Shown here piece after piece: positions 12,742-25,613 of a DNA stretch of 64,000 nt (position 1 is its first letter; each line of letters opens with the position of its first letter). Origin of the DNA: Candidatus Aminicenantes bacterium UBA6228 (lineage in GTDB: Bacteria > Acidobacteriota > Aminicenantia > Aminicenantales > Saccharicenantaceae); contig DJWO01000014.1 of the NCBI GenBank assembly GCA_002441005.1, positions 328,130 through 392,129 of the forward strand. Reading direction: 5' to 3'. The translations under genes and the position numbers were made by a program. The notes beneath the pieces were generated by a model. The model did no database searches. It was not told the origin of the DNA and was given only the letters and a program-made list of their open reading frames with translations.

Positions 12742-13944
12742 TTACCTGGTTATTCTAACGATATTAAAAATTGGCAAATAAATCGAAAGAATCATCACCG
12801 CTGCCACTAGTCCGATAAAAATGATGATCACCGGCTCGATCAGAGAAACCAGCGTTTGTATTTTATCGCGCAAAGCCTGATCATAAAAATCAGCCACTTC
12901 ACTTAACATGCCGGGCAAATTAGCCGAGCTTTCACCAATCCGGATCATATCGGTGGCCAGAGGCGGAAAAATTCCAGCACTGGCCAGAGAATCATAAAGA
13001 CTCTGCCCGCTGGTCAGTTTTTCTGCCACCGTTTCGAGCCTGGAGGAAATATAGCGGTTAGTCACGGCCAGCCTGGCCACATTGACCGAGGGGACCAGAG
13101 TAATGCCGGCTTCCAGCAGCAACCCGAGAGTCCGGCTGTAAAGAGACACAGCTGAATCCTGAACTAAATAACGAGAGTAAGGCAGATGAAGTTTCAGCCG
13201 GTCATTCAAAATCATAAACTCCGGCCGGCGGCGCAAACTAATTATGGCCAGGACGATTACTATCACCAACAGCACCAGCCAGAGCAGGTTTTTCTGCAAA
13301 AAGGTAGCCAGAGAGATTAAGCCCCTGGTTATAGCCGGCAGTTGAGCCCCAAAATCAGCATAAAAAGAAGCAAATCTGGGCAAAACTAAAACGACCAGAA
13401 TGCCAATCAGGATTAGCGAAAATATGATCAGCAGAGTTGGATAGAGAAGTGCTGACCGGACCCTGGTGCGGGTTTGCGTTATGACTTGAGCATATTCGAG
13501 GTAACGCTTGATCGACCCGGGAAGGTTGCCGCTTCTTTCCCCGGCCAGGAGAGAAGCTGTATAAACCTTGGAAAACAGGTGTTCGTAGGGAGAAAAAGCT
13601 TCCGACAGCGTCCGGCCTTTTCTGATTTCCTCCTCCACCTGGCCGACAATTTCCCTCAGGTAGGGATTTTCAATTCTTTTTTCCATCAGTTCCAGGCTCT
13701 TTAGGACCGGATAGCCAGCTTTGAGCATAGCCACCAGTTCCTGATTAAAAAGAATAAACTCCTGCTGCTTGATTTTGCGGCGAGATAAACGAAGGCGGCC
13801 GAGACTTATTTCTTTCCGGATAGACAGGACATAGAGCCCCTCCGCTTCCAGATGTTTACGGCATTCAGCTGGCGAGGCGGCCCTGATTGTTTCCCTGACA
13901 ATTCGCCCCTCAGGAGTTATAAGACGGCAGAAATAACCAGGCAT
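12742..13944 (-). CDS. pilC: Type IV pilus inner-membrane platform protein PilC (GspF family)
   Basis: 400 aa with two GspF repeats and three TM segments. It is the first gene of the operon. Confidence 0.9.
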   Translation of the reverse strand: MPGYFCRLITPEGRIVRETIRAASPAECRKHLEAEGLYVLSIRKEISLGRLRLSRRKIKQQEFILFNQELVAMLKAGYPVLKSLELMEKRIENPYLREIVGQVEEEIRKGRTLSEAFSPYEHLFSKVYTASLLAGERSGNLPGSIKRYLEYAQVITQTRTRVRSALLYPTLLIIFSLILIGILVVLVLPRFASFYADFGAQLPAITRGLISLATFLQKNLLWLVLLVIVIVLAIISLRRRPEFMILNDRLKLHLPYSRYLVQDSAVSLYSRTLGLLLEAGITLVPSVNVARLAVTNRYISSRLETVAEKLTSGQSLYDSLASAGIFPPLATDMIRIGESSANLPGMLSEVADFYDQALRDKIQTLVSLIEPVIIIFIGLVAAVMILSIYLPIFNIVRITR

Positions 13945-13975
13945 TTACCTTCTCAATCTTTGCCTTTCAGTCGTT

Positions 13976-14011
13976 ATCTTAAGATAGCCTGAAGCTATTG
14001 TCAATTGACAA
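13976..14011 (-). promoter_or_regulatory. Putative sigma-70 promoter of the pilC-Q operon, embedded in the perfect palindrome TTGTCAATTGACAA (13998-14011)
   Basis: On the minus strand: TTGACA, a 17-bp spacer, TAAGAT, then about 30 nt to the pilC ATG. The 14-bp palindrome provides TTGACA on both strands. Confidence 0.5.
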
Positions 14012-14174
14012 CTGCCTGGCCAGGGTTTGACCCAAGTGTCCTTCACCGGCCTGAAAAACCTAAGTTAATAAAAAACCATCAGGCTGGTCAGACCCTGTCA
14101 TCAATAGATGTTCACTTAATGACTTAAGGTGGCCAGGAGGATAAGGGTTTCAAAAAATAAATTTTTTAAAAATA

Positions 14175-14210
14175 GTTGACAAATGTCATAAATTGTATTA
14201 TGTTGTCAAC
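14175..14210 (+). promoter_or_regulatory. Promoter/operator of the XRE-family gene: -35 TTGACA (14176-14181) and -10 TATGTT/TATTAT, bracketed by the inverted repeat GTTGACAA (14175-14182) ... TTGTCAAC (14203-14210)
   Basis: Read directly from the sequence. The RBS AGGAAG lies 6 nt before the ATG at 14239. Confidence 0.55.
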
Positions 14211-14238
14211 CAGAAGAGGGTCTTAAAAGGAAGCATGT

Positions 14239-15507
14239 ATGGGAACATCTAACGACAGATCAAAGGTGGATGCGACCTTCCCGTTAAGGTTGAGAGCAGC
14301 CCGTTTGAAGGCCGGCCTTAGTCTCGAGGACCTGGCCTGCAAGCTCGGGGGAATAGTCAGCCGCCAGGCCATTGCCAAGTATGAAAAGGGCCTGGCCGCC
14401 CCATCTCCCGAAGTCCTTGAACACCTCCTCCAGGTCCTCGAGATCCCGGCTCCACCTGAAGAGGTCACTTCTTTAAGTTGTTTCACAGATAATTTTAGAG
14501 CTCGAAATGTTTCTTATAAAAGAAAAAGTAATACTGCCAGGCAAGACCTCAACTTGAAAAAAACCGGGGCTGACAACCAGCTAGCTGAAGACAAAAAGCT
14601 GGAGTGGTTGGAACCGACTCGGGTTTATTTTTGCCTCAATAGACAGGACCTTCAGCCGGCCAACATTCAAAAGGATAAGGAAAAAGAATCATTTATCTTC
14701 CGCTGCGGTTTGAAGCTTAGCTCGAAACAACTTACTGCCCTGAGAGTCCAGATCGCAGAAAAGATGGAAAAATATCTCCGTCTTGAATCGCTGCTTAAGG
14801 CAGAACTTAAGTTCACGGTTGGATTGAGCAATTCTTCCCTTGCCAACCCTGACCAAACTGAACAGGCTGCCGGGGAATTACGCCAGCTCTGGGATCTGGG
14901 AACTGGCCCGGTAGTCAATATTCTAACTTTTCTTGAAGACCGGGGAATAAAAATTTTTAGGTTAGCCGGTCCGGAAGGTTTTGAAAGCTGTTCTGGATTC
15001 TATCTTGACTCACCTTTTATTGCCGTCAATGACAACCTGCCGGTTGACCGGCTAAGATTTAAAACCTCAACTGAGCTGGCTCAGATTTTATTTGGTTTCT
15101 CTGAAGATCCAGCGCAGTCGAAACTCTATAACCGCTGGGCGGCGGCTTTTTTAATGCCGGCCAGGAAGCTCGAAGAATATTTTTTGCCGGCTGGCCGGAA
15201 AATTGCCCTGAGTGAGCTGGCCGAAATAAAATTGCGCTATGGAATTTCTTTGCAGGCCATCATGTACCGGGCTTATGATCTTGGCCTGATAACCGAGCGG
15301 CGGTTAAGAGCCTTTAGAGAATTGCTCAATCAAAAAGGCTGGCTGACTAAAGAACCAGTGGCTTACCGGGGCGAAGAGTTCCCTCAGCGGTTTAAAAGAC
15401 TGATTCATTATGCTATCTCCTCAGAAATTCTTGACCTTAAAACAGCCGCTTCTTTGGCCGAAACTACGCCGGAAGATTTGTGCCAGGAGATTGGAGACAT
15501 TTTTTAA
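14239..15507 (+). CDS. XRE-family HTH protein fused to a degenerate ImmA/IrrE-type (M78-like) metallopeptidase domain that lacks the HExxH motif
   Basis: The N-terminus is a classic HTH_XRE (LRAARLKAGLSLEDLACKLGGIVSRQAIAKYEKG). The C-terminal region has ImmA/IrrE-family hallmarks (YNRWAAAFLMPARKLEEYF; LAEIKLRYGISLQAIMYRAYDLGLI). At the position of the family's Zn-binding HExxH the sequence is STELAQ (...RLRFKTSTELAQILFG...), so both catalytic His residues are absent. Confidence 0.65.
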   Translation: MGTSNDRSKVDATFPLRLRAARLKAGLSLEDLACKLGGIVSRQAIAKYEKGLAAPSPEVLEHLLQVLEIPAPPEEVTSLSCFTDNFRARNVSYKRKSNTARQDLNLKKTGADNQLAEDKKLEWLEPTRVYFCLNRQDLQPANIQKDKEKESFIFRCGLKLSSKQLTALRVQIAEKMEKYLRLESLLKAELKFTVGLSNSSLANPDQTEQAAGELRQLWDLGTGPVVNILTFLEDRGIKIFRLAGPEGFESCSGFYLDSPFIAVNDNLPVDRLRFKTSTELAQILFGFSEDPAQSKLYNRWAAAFLMPARKLEEYFLPAGRKIALSELAEIKLRYGISLQAIMYRAYDLGLITERRLRAFRELLNQKGWLTKEPVAYRGEEFPQRFKRLIHYAISSEILDLKTAASLAETTPEDLCQEIGDIF

Positions 15508-15657
15508 CCGGGCCGGGGCCCTGATTACCCTGGCTGTCAGGTTAGAGGGGAGTTGATGATGGGTTTTATTTTGAACATTCCGCCTTAGCGAAAGAGACAG
15601 GAACAGGGGAAATTGACTTAATTTATCAGGTCTTTTTTTGGAAAGAAGGAGTCTATT

Positions 15658-16734
15658 ATGCCAAAACTTATTGATTCTTATCTTTTAGAAATGGAAATTG
15701 GCCAGCCCCAGACAGCTGGAGAGATAGCCGTTTTTCCACTTAAATCCAGCCGGAATCCTGGTCCTGAGTATATAACTTTAGCCGAGGCCCTGGCCAGCGG
15801 CCAATTAACGGTCACCGAGGTCAGCCACGGTGGATCTGTCCCGGAGTTAAAAGCGGTAAATCAAGGGGGAAAAGCGGTGCTGATGCTGGATGGCGAGGAA
15901 CTGGTTGGGGCCAAACAAAACCGGGTCCTGAATACTACTATCTGGGTGGCGCCAGGAACCAGCCTGGTTATTCCGGTTAGCTGCGTGGAAAGAAACCGCT
16001 GGTCCGGTCTTCATCATCCCGTAGAGAAATCAGACAATGTGATGGTTCATTCCATGCGGCTTAAAAAAGTTCAAAGTGTCAATAAGAACTTAGAAAAAAA
16101 GGCCGGCTTTAAAAGCGATCAGTCTGAAGTCTGGCGGGAACTGGATAGGGCTTGTTACTTACTTAACGTGGATTCACCCACCGCTGCCATGAGAGATATT
16201 TATGAAAGGCGGAAGACTGAACTAGAAAACTACTTAAAGGCTTTCAGGCCCGTTCCCGGCCAGCAAGGCTTGCTGGTTTTTTGGGCTGGAAAACCTCTGG
16301 GCTGTGATTTCATTTCCAGAGAAGAAGCCCTGGCCAGTTTGTTTCAAAAGCTGCTTAAAAGCTACCTGCTCGAAGTCATAATGGTCAGTCAGGATAGAGG
16401 AACCGGAGACCAGGAAGGTAAAAGCCAGAAAGTTAAGGGTCCAGCCAGACAGAAACCAACTGTTCCTGGAATAAAAAAAGCCAGAAACTTCCTGTCCAAA
16501 GCGGCTCAAGCCGAAGAGAAAAGATATAAAGCTACCGGTTCAGGTCAAGCCTGCCGCTATTGCCATCAGGATTTAGCCGGGGCTTCGCTGGAAATAGACA
16601 ATTTTATTCCCCATTTTGTTTTTTTAGCCACCGAAAAAGGTTCGCGGTTCAGAAATTACCGGAATAGAGAAAATTTCTCCGGATTAAGGGACAGGAAAGC
16701 CTTCCTTTCCAGAAGTGGAGATGACCTTAAATAA
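15658..16734 (+). CDS. Uncharacterised protein with an N-terminal conserved domain that I recall as ARPP-1-like (domain of unknown function) and a C-terminal CxxC region
   Basis: 358 aa with a strong RBS (AAGGAG). The N-terminal roughly 115 aa (AVFPL...ITLAEALASGQLTVTEVSHGGSVPELKAVNQGGKAVLMLDGEELVGAKQNRVLNTTIW...VIPVSCVERNRW) carry the signature I associate with the ARPP-1-like family, written here from memory and not database-checked. The C-terminus contains GQACRYCHQD. No signal peptide is seen. Confidence 0.5.
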   Translation: MPKLIDSYLLEMEIGQPQTAGEIAVFPLKSSRNPGPEYITLAEALASGQLTVTEVSHGGSVPELKAVNQGGKAVLMLDGEELVGAKQNRVLNTTIWVAPGTSLVIPVSCVERNRWSGLHHPVEKSDNVMVHSMRLKKVQSVNKNLEKKAGFKSDQSEVWRELDRACYLLNVDSPTAAMRDIYERRKTELENYLKAFRPVPGQQGLLVFWAGKPLGCDFISREEALASLFQKLLKSYLLEVIMVSQDRGTGDQEGKSQKVKGPARQKPTVPGIKKARNFLSKAAQAEEKRYKATGSGQACRYCHQDLAGASLEIDNFIPHFVFLATEKGSRFRNYRNRENFSGLRDRKAFLSRSGDDLK

Positions 16735-17099
16735 GAACCTGAGAGACTGGCCGGATGTAAGCCGAAGCCTGGAAAGGCCGGGCCAATCGGCGAACTTTTC
16801 CTGCCTTGATGGGCCATCGCTTAGATCATTTCCGGCCAATGAACAGGCTCAAATTGCTTATTCTATTTTGTATCTGATCAGCCTCAATCAGTTTTTCTAT
16901 AGCAGCCGGTACCAGTCGAAAAGAAAAATTCACCTGATCAACTGACCTATCCGGGGAAAAAGGTCAGAGTGGAAAAGAGCCGGGTTCAGCCAAAAGTGAG
17001 TTAAAAAGGATAGGGAAACCTGGCAGAGACCTCTTAAAACACCTGGCTTCAGGGAAAGGAGTTGACAAGAGCTGATATTAGTCTTATTTAAATATTGTT

Positions 17100-17405
17100 A
17101 TGAAGGGAAGAAGGCTAAAGGTCACTTCAATTGTGGTTATAGGGTTGCTTTTTATGTTATCAGCCTGGTTAGTTTTTGGCCAGGAGGTGGAAAAACAAGA
17201 AAAGTCAAGCGTGCCGTCCCAAACCACACCCCCCCAAACCCCGCCCCAGGAGGTTCAAAAACCAAAACTTGACTATATGAGCACTTTTTTGTCACGTGAC
17301 ACTACACCTCTTGGCTTGAAGGAAGACCAGGAGATCCGCCAGCTTTTGAAGCAGTCGCGTTCAAAATGGATGGTAAGAGCCGGGGTAAGAAATATCCTGA
17401 ACTAA
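17100..17405 (+). CDS. Small secreted Pro/Thr/Gln-rich protein (hypothetical)
   Basis: 101 aa with a signal peptide/TM helix (IVVIGLLFMLSAWLVFG) and a low-complexity TTPPQTPPQE stretch. A promoter-like TTGACA-17-TATTTA lies at 17062-17090. Confidence 0.4.
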   Translation: MKGRRLKVTSIVVIGLLFMLSAWLVFGQEVEKQEKSSVPSQTTPPQTPPQEVQKPKLDYMSTFLSRDTTPLGLKEDQEIRQLLKQSRSKWMVRAGVRNILN

Positions 17406-17470
17406 ATTTTTTTGGATTCTTGATTCATTTTTTTGGATTTACTATATTATCCTTATAAGACAGCAGGTTC

Positions 17471-20320
17471 ATGAAGAGATCTTCTGGTTTTTATTTTTTC
17501 CTGTTAAGCGTGACTCTCCTGACTGTTCTTGGCTTCATCAATATCTCCCGCAAACTGGCCTGGAAAGAACCATACGACGGAGTTATCTGGGCAGAGGGAT
17601 CGAATGGCCTGATTGCTGAAAAAGTCTCCGAAAACAGCCCGGCCTATCTGTCGGGCATCAAGCCTGGCGATATTCTCTTCTCCATCAATAGCACTCCGAT
17701 CAGGAACCGGATTGAATACGTTAAAATGCTCTGGGTGCTGGATCGCCTGGAACAAAAGGCACTCTATCAGATAGGAAGAGAAGGGACCATCCTGGCTCCT
17801 TCGTTCTATTTAGAAAAAAAGGGAGTCAGCTCAAGCTATGTTTATCTGATGCTGCTCGGATTAACCACTCTGGCCATCAGCCTGATTGTTTTCATCAATT
17901 CCAGAAGGAAATTTTCCAGTCTCTATCTGTTTTTTTACCTGGTTTTGCTATCTCTATATTCATTCTATGTCTTTTCTCCAACTGGCCAGATGGATTCGCT
18001 TGACCAGATATTTTTCTGGCTGGATAAAATAGCCATTATTGCTTTCCCTCCTCTTCTTTTAAATTTCTTCTTTATCTTCCCCCAAAAAAAAGAGATCATT
18101 GCTCATCCCGGGGTTCTGGCCCTGTTCTATCTTCCCGGTTCTATCTTGCTTTTGGCTAATATCTGCCTGGTAGCCGTCTTTCAGTCAAAACTGGGTGACG
18201 CCCAGATACTGAATTACCAGAGAATTCTGGACAAGGGTGAGTTATTTCACCTGGCCACTTATAGCCTTATAGCCCTGTTCATGATCATTTACGATGCCAT
18301 CAGTACCAGGAACCTTTATATCAAAAACCAGCTTAAGTGGATAGCTGGAGGCCTGGGGCTGGGAGCCTTGCCTTTTTCTATCTTTTATATTCTACCTTTC
18401 CTGCGAAATGCCCTGCCGTCATCAGCCGGCCAGCTCAGTGTACTTTTTCAGATTTTTGTGCCGGTCACTCTGGCTTATTCAATTTCCCGTTACCGGTTAA
18501 TGGACTTTGAGGTTCTGGTTAAAAAGGGCTTGACTCTGATTATTTCCTTCACTCTGATCGCCCTGGTCTATTTTCTGGTCAGCTCTCAAACTGAGTTGTT
18601 CTCAGAAAACAGGCTAAATGCCATTTTACTTGGTTTGCTGGCTATCATCCTGGGAGCAACTCTTTTCACTCCTCTATCAGAAATGGTTCAGACTCTGGTT
18701 GACCGGGTAATTTACAGGCGAAGTTATGAATACCGCCGGACTTTGCTGCTTATTTCGAGCCAGCTAAACCGGGAAAGAGATCTTAACCGCCTGGTCAGCT
18801 ATCTGGTTGAAACTATATCGAAGGCGCTTTCCCTGAAAAGCCTGGGGCTTTTTCTGGCGCGAGAAGAGCGGCCAGACGAGTTTTACCTTCTTCGGGCGGC
18901 AGGGGAACCTTATCTGACTTTGCCTGTTGTGCAGTTAAGTCCGGCCGAAAGTCAGGAGCTACAAAAAACGGAGTTTATATCTTTCTTGCCTGGAACTGAA
19001 ACGCCGGCTCTGGCTGGTATTTTTACTTCTCTTAAGGATAAAGGGTTCAATAACTTCTTGCCTCTCAAGCTGGAGAACAGAATAATTGGTTTTCTGGCTC
19101 TCGGGGATAAAATTGACGGTTCTTTTCTTTCGGGTGAAGACCGGGAACTTCTCCGGACAATTTCGCCTTCCGTTACTTTAGCCTTGGAAAATGCCTATCT
19201 CTATAACCAGGAAATTATCCGCTCCCAGGAACTGCAACGTCTTAAAGATTATAGCGATAACATTATCGAGAGCCTGACCGTGGGTGTGGCCGTCATTGAT
19301 GAGAGTGGACTGGTCACCGGCTGGAACCGGGTCCTGGAACAGCAGTTTGGCCTGAGCCGTTCTCAGGCTTTAAACCGCCATCTATCTGAGGTTATTGGTT
19401 TAGAGAACTTCCAGGCTATTTTTCCTCCAGAAACCCAGGCAGAATACCAGCTGCTGAGCGAAATTACTCTGACCACCGCCCCCGGCCAGAAAAAAATCTT
19501 TGATGTGGCCAGAACACCTTTGCTTGATAACCATTTCCGGGCCTATGGGACCATTATCGTTTTTGAAGATATAACTGAGAAAATCGGGCTGCAGCAGCAA
19601 ATGGTGACCTCCGAAAAACTGGCTTCTATTGGCCTGCTCTCGGCCGGCGTCGCTCATGAGATTAACACCCCGCTGACCGGTATTTCCAGCTATGTCCAGA
19701 TACTTCAAAAAAAACTGACTGAAACTAACTATCTTCAGATCCTGAAAAAGATAGAAGATCAAACTGACCGGGTCAGCAAGATAGTCAAAAACCTGCTGAG
19801 CTTTTCCCGCAATCCCGCCGACCTGGCCTTCCACCGGATTGACCTCAAAGAGAGCCTCGAAGAAATTATTTCTCTCATTGACTACCGGCTAAAAAGCTTG
19901 AATATTAACCTTTCCCTGGACTTAAAGCCAGTCATCATTTACGCCCAGAGAGAAAGGCTCCAACAGGTTTTTATTAATATCATTCTTAATGCTCTGGATG
20001 CTATGCCGGGCGGCGGGCAGCTGACCATCCAGACCAGACAGCAGGAAGCCCGGGCCATAATCAAAATAACTGATACCGGCCTGGGCATCAAGCCTGAACA
20101 TTTGCCCAGAATTTTTGACCCATTTTTTACCACCAAAGGAATAGGCAAAGGGACAGGCCTGGGTCTGTCCATCAGCTTTGCCATTGTCAAAGAACACGAA
20201 GGGCAAATCCTGGTAGACAGCCAGGTTGGTCAGGGGACAACTTTTACCATCATTTTGCCGGCCAACCTGTCCGAAAAAAACTTAAGGCCAGCTAATCCAG
20301 GAGGAATTGGTCATGAATGA
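17471..20320 (+). CDS. Sensor histidine kinase: N-terminal TM helix, periplasmic PDZ-like domain, multi-pass membrane module, GAF, PAS, HisKA and HATPase_c
   Basis: 949 aa. PDZ-like segment: GIKPGDILFSINSTPI. At least 8 hydrophobic helices follow. H-box: SAGVAHEINTPL. N, G1 and G2 boxes: NIILNALDAM, DTGLGI, GKGTGLGLSIS. A promoter-like TTGATT-17-TATATT lies at 17420-17448. Confidence 0.85.
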   Translation: MKRSSGFYFFLLSVTLLTVLGFINISRKLAWKEPYDGVIWAEGSNGLIAEKVSENSPAYLSGIKPGDILFSINSTPIRNRIEYVKMLWVLDRLEQKALYQIGREGTILAPSFYLEKKGVSSSYVYLMLLGLTTLAISLIVFINSRRKFSSLYLFFYLVLLSLYSFYVFSPTGQMDSLDQIFFWLDKIAIIAFPPLLLNFFFIFPQKKEIIAHPGVLALFYLPGSILLLANICLVAVFQSKLGDAQILNYQRILDKGELFHLATYSLIALFMIIYDAISTRNLYIKNQLKWIAGGLGLGALPFSIFYILPFLRNALPSSAGQLSVLFQIFVPVTLAYSISRYRLMDFEVLVKKGLTLIISFTLIALVYFLVSSQTELFSENRLNAILLGLLAIILGATLFTPLSEMVQTLVDRVIYRRSYEYRRTLLLISSQLNRERDLNRLVSYLVETISKALSLKSLGLFLAREERPDEFYLLRAAGEPYLTLPVVQLSPAESQELQKTEFISFLPGTETPALAGIFTSLKDKGFNNFLPLKLENRIIGFLALGDKIDGSFLSGEDRELLRTISPSVTLALENAYLYNQEIIRSQELQRLKDYSDNIIESLTVGVAVIDESGLVTGWNRVLEQQFGLSRSQALNRHLSEVIGLENFQAIFPPETQAEYQLLSEITLTTAPGQKKIFDVARTPLLDNHFRAYGTIIVFEDITEKIGLQQQMVTSEKLASIGLLSAGVAHEINTPLTGISSYVQILQKKLTETNYLQILKKIEDQTDRVSKIVKNLLSFSRNPADLAFHRIDLKESLEEIISLIDYRLKSLNINLSLDLKPVIIYAQRERLQQVFINIILNALDAMPGGGQLTIQTRQQEARAIIKITDTGLGIKPEHLPRIFDPFFTTKGIGKGTGLGLSISFAIVKEHEGQILVDSQVGQGTTFTIILPANLSEKNLRPANPGGIGHE

Positions 20321-21698
20321 AAATACTAAAATCACAATTCATGTCATCGACGATGAGCCCATAATTCATGATGTTCTGGGTCAGCTTCTTCAGTCTGAGG
20401 GCTACCAGGTCGAAATTTCTGCTTCCGGAGAAGAAGCCCTGCCCAAGCTTCAGCACCGGAAATTTGATCTGACGCTTCTTGATCTGTTAATGCCAGGCCT
20501 CGATGGCCTGGAGGTCTTAAAGCAGATAAAAAGAATTGACCCGGAGGCCCTGGTGATAATCATCACCGCCTATGCCTCAGTTGAATCAGCTTTAACTGCT
20601 ATGAAAATGGGGGCCTATGATTATATCCAGAAGCCGTTCAAAAATGATGAACTCCTGATGACTATTTCCCGGGCTCTGGAACATCGCCGCTTGCAGCTCG
20701 AAAATATCAGGCTTCAGGATGAACTGAAAAAGAAATTTAGCTTTGAAAATATCATCGGTAAAAGCCGGCCGATGCTAAACGTTTTTGAACTCATTAAGGC
20801 GGCTGCTCCGACCCGCTCGACCCTGCTAATTCAAGGGGAAAGTGGGACAGGGAAAGAGCTGGTAGCCAGAGCTATCCATACCAATTCAGACCGGGCTGGC
20901 CATCCGTTTGTCGTAGTTAACAGCGGATCGCTCCCGCCCGATCTTCTGGAAAGCCATCTTTTTGGTCATGTTAAGGGAGCTTTCACTGGAGCCGTGGTTG
21001 ACAAGAAGGGGCTATTTGAAGCTGCCGACCGCGGAACAATATTCTTTGACGAAATCTCTTCTATCAGCCTTGAAACTCAGGTCAAGTTACTGCGGGTCAT
21101 GCAGGACAGGGAGTTTATGCGCCTGGGCGGGACCAAAACCATCAGAGTTGATGTCAGAATTATTGCCGCCACCAACACTGACCTGGAAGAACTGATCGAA
21201 CAAAAGGCCTTTCGTAAGGATCTTTATTACCGGCTGAATGTCATCAAAATTGAACTGCCTCCGCTCCGGGCCAGAAAAGAAGACATTCCCCTTCTGGTCA
21301 GGCATTTCATAGACATCTATAAACAGGAAAATAATAAGGACATTGAAGGGGTCAGCGAAGAAGTGATGGAAATCCTGATGGATTACGACTGGCCGGGAAA
21401 TGTCCGCGAGCTGGAAAATGTGCTGGAGCGGGCGGTGGTTTTAAGCCGGTCAAAGATAATAACCAGAGAAGCCTTGCCAGCTTTTTTGACTGATGTTAGC
21501 CGGTCGGCTTTCAAGGAACTGGGAGAGGATAGTCTGAATTTAAGACAACGAACCCTTGACTATCAGAAACAGCTTATTTTAACCGCTCTGAAAAAATCAA
21601 ATGGCATTCAGAAACAAGCAGCCAGCCTGCTCGGCTTAAAACCGACCACCCTGAATGAAATGATCAAGCGCCTGAAAATTGATATCGAATCAGCCTGA
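20307..21698 (+). CDS. Sigma-54-dependent response regulator (NtrC family: REC + AAA+ sigma-54 activator + Fis-type HTH)
   Basis: Receiver motifs DLTLLDLLMPGLDG; Walker A GESGTGKE; sigma-54 contact motif GAFTGA; C-terminal HTH. Its start overlaps the histidine kinase stop. Confidence 0.92.
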   Translation: MVMNENTKITIHVIDDEPIIHDVLGQLLQSEGYQVEISASGEEALPKLQHRKFDLTLLDLLMPGLDGLEVLKQIKRIDPEALVIIITAYASVESALTAMKMGAYDYIQKPFKNDELLMTISRALEHRRLQLENIRLQDELKKKFSFENIIGKSRPMLNVFELIKAAAPTRSTLLIQGESGTGKELVARAIHTNSDRAGHPFVVVNSGSLPPDLLESHLFGHVKGAFTGAVVDKKGLFEAADRGTIFFDEISSISLETQVKLLRVMQDREFMRLGGTKTIRVDVRIIAATNTDLEELIEQKAFRKDLYYRLNVIKIELPPLRARKEDIPLLVRHFIDIYKQENNKDIEGVSEEVMEILMDYDWPGNVRELENVLERAVVLSRSKIITREALPAFLTDVSRSAFKELGEDSLNLRQRTLDYQKQLILTALKKSNGIQKQAASLLGLKPTTLNEMIKRLKIDIESA

Positions 21699-25550: not shown

Positions 25551-25585
25551 TATTTTTCCTCCAGCCTGGGTTCAAACTTCTATAG

Positions 25586-25613
25586 TTGACAAACGTCATT
25601 TTTTATCTAAAAT
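25586..25613 (+). promoter_or_regulatory. Putative sigma-70 promoter of glnA (TTGACA-16-TAAAAT)
   Basis: Read directly from the sequence. The extended -35 (TAGTTGACAAAYGTCAT) is nearly identical to the one at 14173-14189. Confidence 0.5.

Follow-up and report, generated by a model that had tools for sequence, protein, structure and literature searches.

A 64,000-nt stretch of contig DJWO01000014.1 of Candidatus Aminicenantes bacterium UBA6228 (hereafter the window, meaning the whole of this stretch) carries a gene for a 358-aa protein of the ARPP-1 family (Pfam PF20208). It is preceded by the gene of a regulator that joins an XRE-type helix-turn-helix (HTH) to an ImmA/IrrE M78-like domain, and the gap between the two genes holds a short conserved leader open reading frame (ORF) and a hairpin (Table 1). 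The family has been described but not characterised, and the protein is an ordinary member of it; the novelty of the locus lies in its regulation. The reading that we favour, with a confidence only a little better than even, is that ARPP-1 is the cargo of an inducible cassette, in which a repressor and a leader/hairpin gate would control a protein whose Cys-centred site would act on ADP-ribose-type adducts. The pairing with an HTH-M78 regulator, the pseudoprotease state of the latter and the conserved leader, co-varying with the regulator active site, are absent from the paper in which ARPP was defined (Iyer, Burroughs, Anantharaman and Aravind 2022; PMC9503650), which was also the sole paper mentioning the domain that a literature search on the family retrieved.

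ARPP-1 Protein and Its Invariant Core

Comparison of the 358-aa protein with the Pfam ARPP-1 model gave an E-value of 1.5e-85 (287.6 bits, against a cut-off of 27), the match running from aa 12 to aa 321 and from position 2 to position 295 of the 297 of the model. The ARPP-1 domain is indeed essentially the whole protein, which is a genuine full-length PF20208 member, and only a basic tail of ~35 residues (aa 325–358), of low confidence in the predicted structure, lies outside it. The family call made in a preliminary description of this DNA was thus borne out, and the orphan without similarity that had been considered there was not what the search returned; the division of the protein into an N-terminal ARPP-1 domain and a separate C-terminal part did not hold. 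No match was found for the protein in NCBIfam, PHROGs or PADLOC (none at E<=1 in the latter, RmrT included), and no paralog of either the regulator or the ARPP-1 gene occurs within the window. Consistent with the lack of a signal peptide and the cytoplasmic location previously proposed, the polar N-terminus lies within the conserved domain. ARPP-2, formerly suspected to name a partner, is instead a separate and weakly related Pfam family (PF22549), with no member in the locus; a weak match to it was observed inside the ARPP-1 region of the family member P0261. The eukaryotic ARPP-16/19 phosphoproteins share the name only and are unrelated.

Conservation was evaluated in two alignments, one of 35 homologs (39–75% identity) and one of 80 homologs from reference genomes of many phyla (35–87% identity). 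In the latter, residues A44, E54, G59, V61, L64, G79, E80, E81, A85, Q87, N88, R89, N92, V107, C109, E111, R114 and W115 were conserved in at least 99% of the sequences, and the columns at 93–99% included D78, K86, T93, P106, S108, S125, R134, Q155, W159, R300 and H319. The predicted active-site segment, defined by the invariant or near-invariant columns of both alignments, comprises the motifs DGEE (aa 78–81), GAKQNRVLNTT (aa 84–94, with QNRVLN at aa 87–92) and PVSCVERNRW (aa 106–115), located among short beta-strands (aa 64–109). As judged from these alignments, the Cys/Glu/Arg/Trp and QNR..N clusters form the invariant core of the family, in agreement with the preliminary description, which had singled out PVSCVERNRW and QNR.LN as invariant-looking site motifs. 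The absolutely conserved Cys and Gln expected of ARPP (PMC9503650) are present as C109 and Q87. When compared with orthologs of 88% and 80% identity, as for all the ratios given below, the ARPP-1 gene showed a nonsynonymous to synonymous substitution ratio (dN/dS) of 0.17–0.20.

As for the C-terminal GQACRYCHQD (aa 296–305), for which metal binding had been suggested, it forms part of the ARPP-1 domain, and the model places it in a strand of the second beta-meander. The conserved residues around it are G294, G296, R300 and, further on, H319; only G296 and R300 belong to the motif. Position 299 is occupied among the 80 homologs by Tyr (36), His (15), Cys (13) or Phe (7), and position 302 by Glu (29), Ala (11), Thr (9) and others, with the second Cys (C302) not found even in a 73%-identical ortholog. 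The CxxC-H motif (C299, C302, H303) is therefore lineage-specific, and its role as a metal site of the family is contradicted by the non-conservation of positions 299 and 302.

An AlphaFold2 model, obtained from the 35-sequence alignment, reached a mean predicted local distance difference test (pLDDT) score of 85.8 and a predicted template modelling (pTM) score of 0.84, with low confidence limited to residues 254–264 and 328–343. Along the modelled chain, strands at aa 18–54 are followed by the short strands carrying the conserved motifs (aa 64–109), a strand at aa 123–128, a helical portion (aa 131–249) and four strands at aa 286–324. Compared by the order of secondary structure elements alone, the model agrees with the published duplicated beta-meander with an inserted beta-barrel (PMC9503650). 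The structure search previously recommended was run with Foldseek and returned no significant relative, either in the PDB (best E 0.1) or among the viral structures of BFVD (best E 0.09), nor did a sequence profile significantly match any PDB chain (best E 0.17). As modelled, the ARPP-1 fold has no characterised relative among PDB and BFVD structures.

Genomic Contexts of the Family

The ARPP-1 family is spread over many bacterial and archaeal phyla, with at least 3,951 homologs retrieved by a word-indexed search and 6,747 cluster representatives (50% clustering) by an exhaustive search at E<=0.001. ARPP has been reported in conflict systems centred on an ADP-ribosylglycohydrolase (ARG), together with enzymes of the rhodanese-phosphatase superfamily and WYL or Nudix regulators, and also in two-gene arrangements whose other member is HIRAN, a WYL regulator or a PF01522 deacetylase (PMC9503650). 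In the same work an action on ribose moieties was proposed, possibly as covalent capture through the Cys, with no experiment reported.

A context census was performed on 80 loci from reference genomes, 79 of them non-redundant, in which all ORFs were scanned with local hidden Markov models built from neighbour clusters identified by Pfam. The 79 loci are the best slice of more than 592 matches, ranked by likeness to the clade of the window, so that the following frequencies are biased: an HTH-M78 gene was found in 23/79 loci, a WYL regulator in 14, ARG (ADP_ribosyl_GH) in 13, DSP-PTPase in nine (three of them fused to ARPP-1), a metallo-beta-lactamase nuclease-type gene in five, and DUF2779 and a Csa3-like gene in three each. 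M78 and WYL regulators were mutually exclusive across loci. Longer family members were also detected in which ARPP-1 is fused in one polypeptide to ADP_ribosyl_GH, to a Macro domain, to DSP-PTPase or to REC and MORN. The published context picture is reproduced by the census and the fusions, and the three independent fusions to domains that process ADP-ribose or phosphate strengthen the functional link with ADP-ribose.

Two further kinds of context were observed in archaeal-type loci. In loci of the Methanobacterium type (L066, L074 and L083), the gene of a 117–129-aa REC-clustering protein ends 15–26 nt upstream of ARPP-1, and in P0247, one of the long family members, a single chain combines ARPP-1 with REC and MORN repeats; REC-type neighbours and fusions would be a third kind of regulatory input. 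In loci of the Methanoregulaceae/Methanolinea type (L059, L076 and L078), ARPP-1 is flanked by the gene of a Csa3/HFX_2341-like regulator and by a metallo-beta-lactamase/RMMBL nuclease-type gene, a context unlisted in PMC9503650.

Upstream Regulator and Its Degenerate Protease Site

The gene immediately upstream of ARPP-1 encodes a 422-aa RmrA-like protein, in which an XRE-type HTH (aa 18–70) is followed by a variable linker, the ImmA/IrrE M78-like domain (aa 233–345) and a conserved C-terminal region. Pfam matches were obtained with HTH_3 (1.1e-12) and Peptidase_M78 (6.2e-10), with no GAF domain detected by Pfam. In PADLOC the protein matched 14 RmrA models (best E=6.8e-40) and, weakly, capH (4.5e-5) and capP (6.2e-5). 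It also matched PHROG 2439, a phage transcriptional-regulator family (1.7e-46), and, below its cut-off, the NCBIfam "spr1629 family repressor/antitoxin".

An HTH-M78 gene lies immediately upstream of ARPP-1, and in the same direction, in 27/84 fetched loci, and two further loci with the pair (L089 and L090) were found through the regulator protein. The recurrence of an XRE/ImmA-like neighbour, raised in the preliminary description, thus applies to the clade of the window. ARPP-1 is the only cargo of the XRE-HTH and M78 regulator in all of the 24 related Aminicenantes loci, and in a neighbour-joining tree the M78-linked ARPP-1 proteins form one clade (~43–87% identity), with L050 (37%) just outside. 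Within the genus the pair is syntenic, between an operon of the T2SSE/T2SSF type (type IV pilus or type II secretion system-like) and the genes of a PDZ-PAS histidine kinase and a sigma-54 regulator. In deeper Aminicenantes loci the pair is intact and the flanking genes differ, indicating that it travels as a unit.

The close subfamily of the regulator is narrow. In distant relatives, a DUF3368 (PIN-like) gene is found 14 nt downstream (L085/L086, 5095–5607) or a PemK/MazF gene overlaps the regulator (L087, 5169–5393), and another relative adjoins a phage integrase (L088); these four loci are typical modules of the RosmerTA/NetFlax style.

The M78 site distinguishes two groups of orthologs. 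In 13 deeper orthologs it reads HEL[GA]H-xx-C, followed by E-x-x-C-H ahead of an FxAAFLLP motif. The Saccharicenans clade, with 11 loci, has TELAQ, AELAQ or SELAQ in place of HExxH (two loci have TELAH and NELAH), Phe in place of the Cys, and (K/R)LYNR in place of E..CH (LYAH in L013). In CapP the zinc is bound by H97, H101 and E128, and C114 acts as a switch (PMC13228613); by this standard the metal site is gone in the Saccharicenans clade, whose regulator is a pseudoprotease. This protein is not decaying: the M78 part showed the lowest dN/dS of the whole regulator (0.055–0.10), followed by the C-terminal region (0.07–0.09), the HTH (0.21–0.23) and the linker (0.43–0.50), and the pseudoprotease is thus under strong purifying selection.

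Leader ORF and Post-Leader Hairpin

The gap between regulator and ARPP-1 measures 150 nt in the window and 92–349 nt across loci, and its two conserved blocks correspond to the two ends of a leader ORF of ten codons. A leader ORF of 9–14 codons was detected in 24/24 M78-linked Aminicenantes loci versus 0/56 other ARPP-1 loci, preceded in all the 24 by a G-rich Shine-Dalgarno (SD) sequence. Its start, ATG(ATG)GG, is invariant, and the stop is TAG in 22/24 loci. Gly8 is invariant and uses all four Gly codons, Gly3 uses three, and the terminal Ile-Pro-Pro codons show wobble-only changes. Leader lengths of 30, 33, 42 and 45 nt imply in-frame changes, with the frame always open. Entropy per codon position was 0.23/0.59/1.02 in the group of 13-codon leaders, and in the deep clade nucleotide identity, 81% within the ORF, falls to 47% and then to 31% past the stop. 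This pattern makes it well supported that the leader is read as protein and conserved at the peptide level. Moreover, two leader classes follow the state of the regulator: MMGRFETGYT-stop goes with an intact HExxH (13/13) and MMG...(K/N/R/I)IPP-stop with a degenerate site (11/11).

The window contains no other SD-led ORF resembling the leader, and a search of nt 13900–17500 returned no Rfam family in the leader region. A match to DUF3085 RNA inside the coding sequence of the regulator (nt 14280–14366, minus strand) was discarded as chance-level (22 bits versus a gathering threshold of 40.6, E=0.99).

Past the leader stop, a hairpin with a T-run is a candidate attenuator or terminator, weak in the window. 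In the deep clade a GC-rich hairpin (−14 to −49 kcal/mol) with a T-run occurs in 10/13 loci, starting 0–16 nt past the leader stop and with the T-run 30–38 nt ahead of the ARPP-1 ATG; a terminator scanner independently flagged the same spot in L021 and L022. The 3' arm base-pairs in several deep-clade loci with the final codons of the leader and its stop, so that a ribosome standing on the stop codon would keep the stem from closing. A structured element ended by a U-run next to the leader is thus well supported, and from it we infer attenuation and its direction.

Promoter and Candidate Operator

Upstream of the regulator gene, a sigma-70-type promoter was identified by promoter and inverted-repeat scans. 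The block GTTGACAAAYG-N14-TATWWTGTCWACC, a −35/−10 pair close to consensus, is the sole alignable one upstream of the regulator in 7/7 Saccharicenans and 12/12 deeper loci, and among the promoter matches of L021 and L022 it scored highest (11/12). With a second, inverted copy (TTGTCAAC) just downstream of the −10 box, the repeat around the promoter is a candidate autoregulatory operator. Neither a plus-strand promoter in the gap before ARPP-1 nor a terminator-like site directly after the regulator stop, ahead of the leader, was found in the window, L021 and L022, which indicates that regulator and ARPP-1 form a single transcription unit.

In the divergent intergenic region, a perfect palindrome (TTGTCAATTGACAA) with the same half-site as the repeat around the regulator promoter lies over the −35 of a promoter-like site of the minus-strand T2SSF/T2SSE genes. 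It is conserved only in the window, L005 and L001, and through it the regulator might also touch the pilus-type operon.

Proposed Mechanism and Alternative Explanations

Considered together, the family context, the fusions and the invariant site make it most likely that ARPP-1 works through its Cys, either as an enzyme or as a covalent trap. Cys109/Glu111/Arg114/Trp115, Gln87/Asn88/Arg89/Asn92 and Asp78–Glu81 would most likely build one catalytic or covalent-capture site, whose substrate, going by the family context, is likely ADP-ribose or another ribose-containing adduct on a macromolecule or metabolite. The HTH-M78 regulator, transcribed from the promoter within the inverted repeat, probably represses the cassette, itself included. 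Upon derepression, transcription would continue into the ten-codon leader, endowed with its own ribosome-binding site, and then into the hairpin and U-run; a ribosome lingering at Ile-Pro-Pro-UAG would block the hairpin and allow read-through into ARPP-1, be it of transcription or of translation. The loss of the zinc-binding residues excludes proteolytic derepression in the genus of the window, where the regulator is probably a repressor controlled by a ligand or partner. The leader changed at the same evolutionary step as the zinc site was lost, and in its rewritten form it may carry part of the sensing. By analogy, the M78 and WYL classes both have members that sense single-stranded DNA (ssDNA), so that one of the inducing conditions may be DNA damage or phage infection.

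Several observations weigh against this reading. No experimental function was found for any ARPP-1 protein in the literature searched, in line with the preliminary description. No ARG, Macro or phosphatase gene occurs within 6 kb of any M78-linked ARPP-1, and the ADP-ribose link is therefore, at this locus, an extrapolation from other clades; the census frequencies are biased. ARG-free two-gene contexts are listed in PMC9503650, and the absence of ARG does not exclude family membership. As for the operator, GTTGACAA is found at 10 sites in the window where 1.6 would be expected, most of them on the plus strand and preceding genes (e.g., nt 17061–17068, 20997–21004 and 25585–25592), and is probably an extended −35 box of the organism, which leaves the inverted copy as the one argument for an operator. 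The hairpin of the window is AU-rich, and its minimum free energy of −8.9 kcal/mol is not significant when compared with shuffled sequences (z = −0.8). The subclade L007–L013 has no terminator-like element and shows a hairpin over the ARPP-1 SD instead. Covariation of the arms, examined in the deep clade by comparing cognate and non-cognate duplexes, was not significant (p ~0.65); a value of p=0.017 for arm pairing over all loci was rejected, as it merely reflects GC differences between clades. RNAalifold returned no pairs and no consensus for the post-leader region, since the hairpins are too unequal in length to align. Finally, an alternative long-range fold, in which the leader SD pairs with the segment before the T-run, would let the element act with either sign.

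The main alternative is a toxin-antitoxin or abortive infection system of the RosmerTA type, with the HTH-M78 protein as RmrA antitoxin and ARPP-1 as a new RmrT-class toxin that would kill or arrest the cell once set free in the course of a phage infection. The 14 RmrA matches and the sub-threshold spr1629 repressor/antitoxin model speak in its favour, as do the distant regulator homologs with DUF3368 or PemK/MazF in the downstream slot, RmrA-type ImmA proteins being hub antitoxins that swap toxins with variable gene order (PMC10440598). Against it, ARPP-1 matches neither PADLOC (RmrT models included) nor PHROGs, the two genes do not overlap and stand 92–349 nt apart with a leader and a hairpin in between, and the pair is vertically inherited and syntenic in the genus, outside any mobile or defence island. 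In other contexts the companions of ARPP-1 are enzymes that remove ADP-ribose, for which a protective and not a toxic role is predicted, and the protease site expected of an RmrA is lost in the regulator of the window. We consider this explanation unlikely.

A more elaborate version of the cassette, improbable in our opinion, is a countermeasure gated by translation stress, in which the leader senses ribosome trouble, the regulator a second signal such as ssDNA, and ARPP-1, as a cysteine enzyme of new fold, removes or covalently captures ribose/ADP-ribose adducts. Here Pro-Pro-UAG would report impaired elongation or termination, for example when a phage or toxin ADP-ribosylates RNA or the translation apparatus. 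If it were true, the loss of the zinc site and the rewriting of the leader would document the move of a sensor from protease to ribosome.

It is equally doubtful that the small ORF has no regulatory role, being a coupling or spacer element or a conserved nucleic-acid motif, and that ARPP-1 is merely co-expressed with an unrelated autoregulated XRE repressor. The weak hairpin of the window, the failure to demonstrate covariation, the lack of an Rfam family and the high conservation of the leader nucleotides themselves in the deep clade (81% mean identity) would fit such a view. It is opposed by the strong and well-spaced SD in 24/24 loci, the invariant start, the open frame with in-frame indels, the synonymous variation at Gly8 and Ile-Pro-Pro, the sharp drop of conservation past the stop, and a peptide C-terminus that switches class exactly with the loss of the regulator active site. 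A part of GQACRYCHQD in the mechanism as a CxxC-H metal site has a negligible chance of being correct, since the motif, present in the window protein and with its first Cys in 13/80 homologs, is replaced mostly by Tyr/His/Phe and Glu/Ala/Thr at its two Cys positions and is modelled as a beta-strand of the ARPP-1 fold.

Table 1. Location in the window of the cassette elements and neighbouring features
Feature	Position (nt)	Strand	Remarks
Palindrome TTGTCAATTGACAA	13998–14011		Divergent intergenic region
Regulator promoter and inverted repeat	14174–14210	+	TTGACA-17-TATGTT, with GTTGACAA / TTGTCAAC around it
Regulator gene	14239–15507	+	422 aa, RmrA-like
Degenerate M78 site	15070–15084 and 15121–15159		Within regulator gene; TELAQ (aa 278–282) for HExxH in the first segment
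Leader SD-like sequence	15545–15552	+	GAGGGGAG; AGGGAGG, GGAGGG or GGGGG across loci
Leader ORF	15556–15588	+	MMGFILNIPP-stop, 10 codons and TAG (ATG ATG GGT TTT ATT TTG AAC ATT CCG CCT TAG)
Post-leader hairpin	15589–15641	+	5' arm CGAAAGAGAC (15589–15598); 3' arm GTCTTTTT from 15630 (to ~15638); T-run to 15641
SD of ARPP-1 gene	15646–15651	+	AAGGAG, read in the sequence, seven bases ahead of the ATG
ARPP-1 gene	15658–16734	+	ATG to TAA, 358 aa
Predicted active-site segment	15889–16002	+	Invariant or near-invariant columns
GQACRYCHQD	16543–16572	+	aa 296–305
76-aa GTG ORF	16715–16945	+	Overlaps the ARPP-1 3' end
101-aa protein gene	17100–17405	+	Between ARPP-1 and the kinase gene
PDZ-PAS histidine kinase gene	17471–20320		

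Neighbouring Features and Significance

The 76-aa GTG ORF has no Pfam match and is probably spurious; a counterpart, a 72-aa gene, is called in one ortholog record (L001, 11049–11267) and not in others. The 101-aa protein has a hydrophobic N-terminal segment and a region rich in Pro, Gln and Thr; its gene is conserved at this syntenic position and may be part of the kinase operon.

The ARPP-1 family is large, its Cys-centred site is invariant, and no solved structure is related to it; the multi-gene conflict systems in which it mostly occurs are difficult to take apart. A minimal form, made of regulator, leader and ARPP-1, is found in Aminicenantes, and it thus renders both the inducer and the action of ARPP-1 alone directly testable. 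The loss of the regulator site set against the change of the leader is a natural experiment on the rewiring of cassette control, and the interchange of WYL-type and M78-type regulators is extended from the cyclic oligonucleotide-based antiphage signalling systems (CBASS) to a different cargo.

Comparison with Known Systems

The protein resembles the published ARPP family (PMC9503650) in its full-length match, the invariant Cys and Gln, the strand order as modelled, the cytoplasmic location and the two-gene set with a one-component negative regulator. Unlike the published pairs (WYL, HIRAN, PF01522) and the ARG systems (WYL/Nudix), the regulator is here an XRE-HTH and M78 protein; there is no ARG or phosphatase nearby, and a leader ORF and a hairpin precede the gene. 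Cys109 of ARPP-1 is internal, unlike the N-terminal Cys2 that SRAP uses with its free amine, and no SRAP-like fold or sequence similarity was found by profile and structure searches. The analogy with the SRAP domain (HMCES/YedK), by which an invariant Cys would react with a sugar aldehyde, was proposed in PMC9503650.

With RosmerTA/NetFlax (PMC10440598) the locus shares a regulator of RmrA architecture and profile matches, whose distant relatives carry swapped small toxins, which fits the behaviour of hub antitoxins with exchanged cargo. Unlike RosmerTA, the 358-aa ARPP-1 cargo matches no RmrT model, the gap is long and contains a leader, and the chromosomal position is stable; unlike its RmrA, the regulator of the window has lost HExxH, which is intact in deeper orthologs.

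Leader-peptide attenuators likewise present a short SD-led ORF ahead of a hairpin, a U-run and a regulated gene, with a selected peptide and, as here, a Pro-Pro-stop end. TnaC is one such ribosome-dependent attenuator, and Pro-Pro followed by a stop is a slow-termination context. Ribosome-dependent control of terminators by a leader peptide is also described for MsrDL/msrD (PMC10314930), and EF-P/polyproline effects on terminators are reported in PMC5021804. Unlike these, our leader has the sequence of no known one, no antiterminator alternative was identified for it, and it lies inside a bicistronic unit, after the repressor gene.

Finally, in CapH/CapP, DdrO/IrrE(PprI) and ImmR/ImmA, as in the cassette, a stress or immune gene located downstream is controlled by HTH and M78 domain types. 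The M78 proteins CapP and IrrE/PprI sense ssDNA or DNA damage (PMC13228613, PMC10904395; also 10.1101/2022.04.27.489752), and the WYL protein CapW senses ssDNA (PMC11662680). Unlike the peptidase-HTH-GAF arrangement of CapP, HTH and M78 are here fused in one chain, in the opposite order and with no GAF by Pfam; unlike cleavage of the CapP/IrrE type, the zinc ligands and the conserved Cys are gone in the genus, cleavage remaining conceivable for the deep clade. As for CBASS, M78-type and WYL-type regulators alternate upstream of one cargo family, here ARPP-1.

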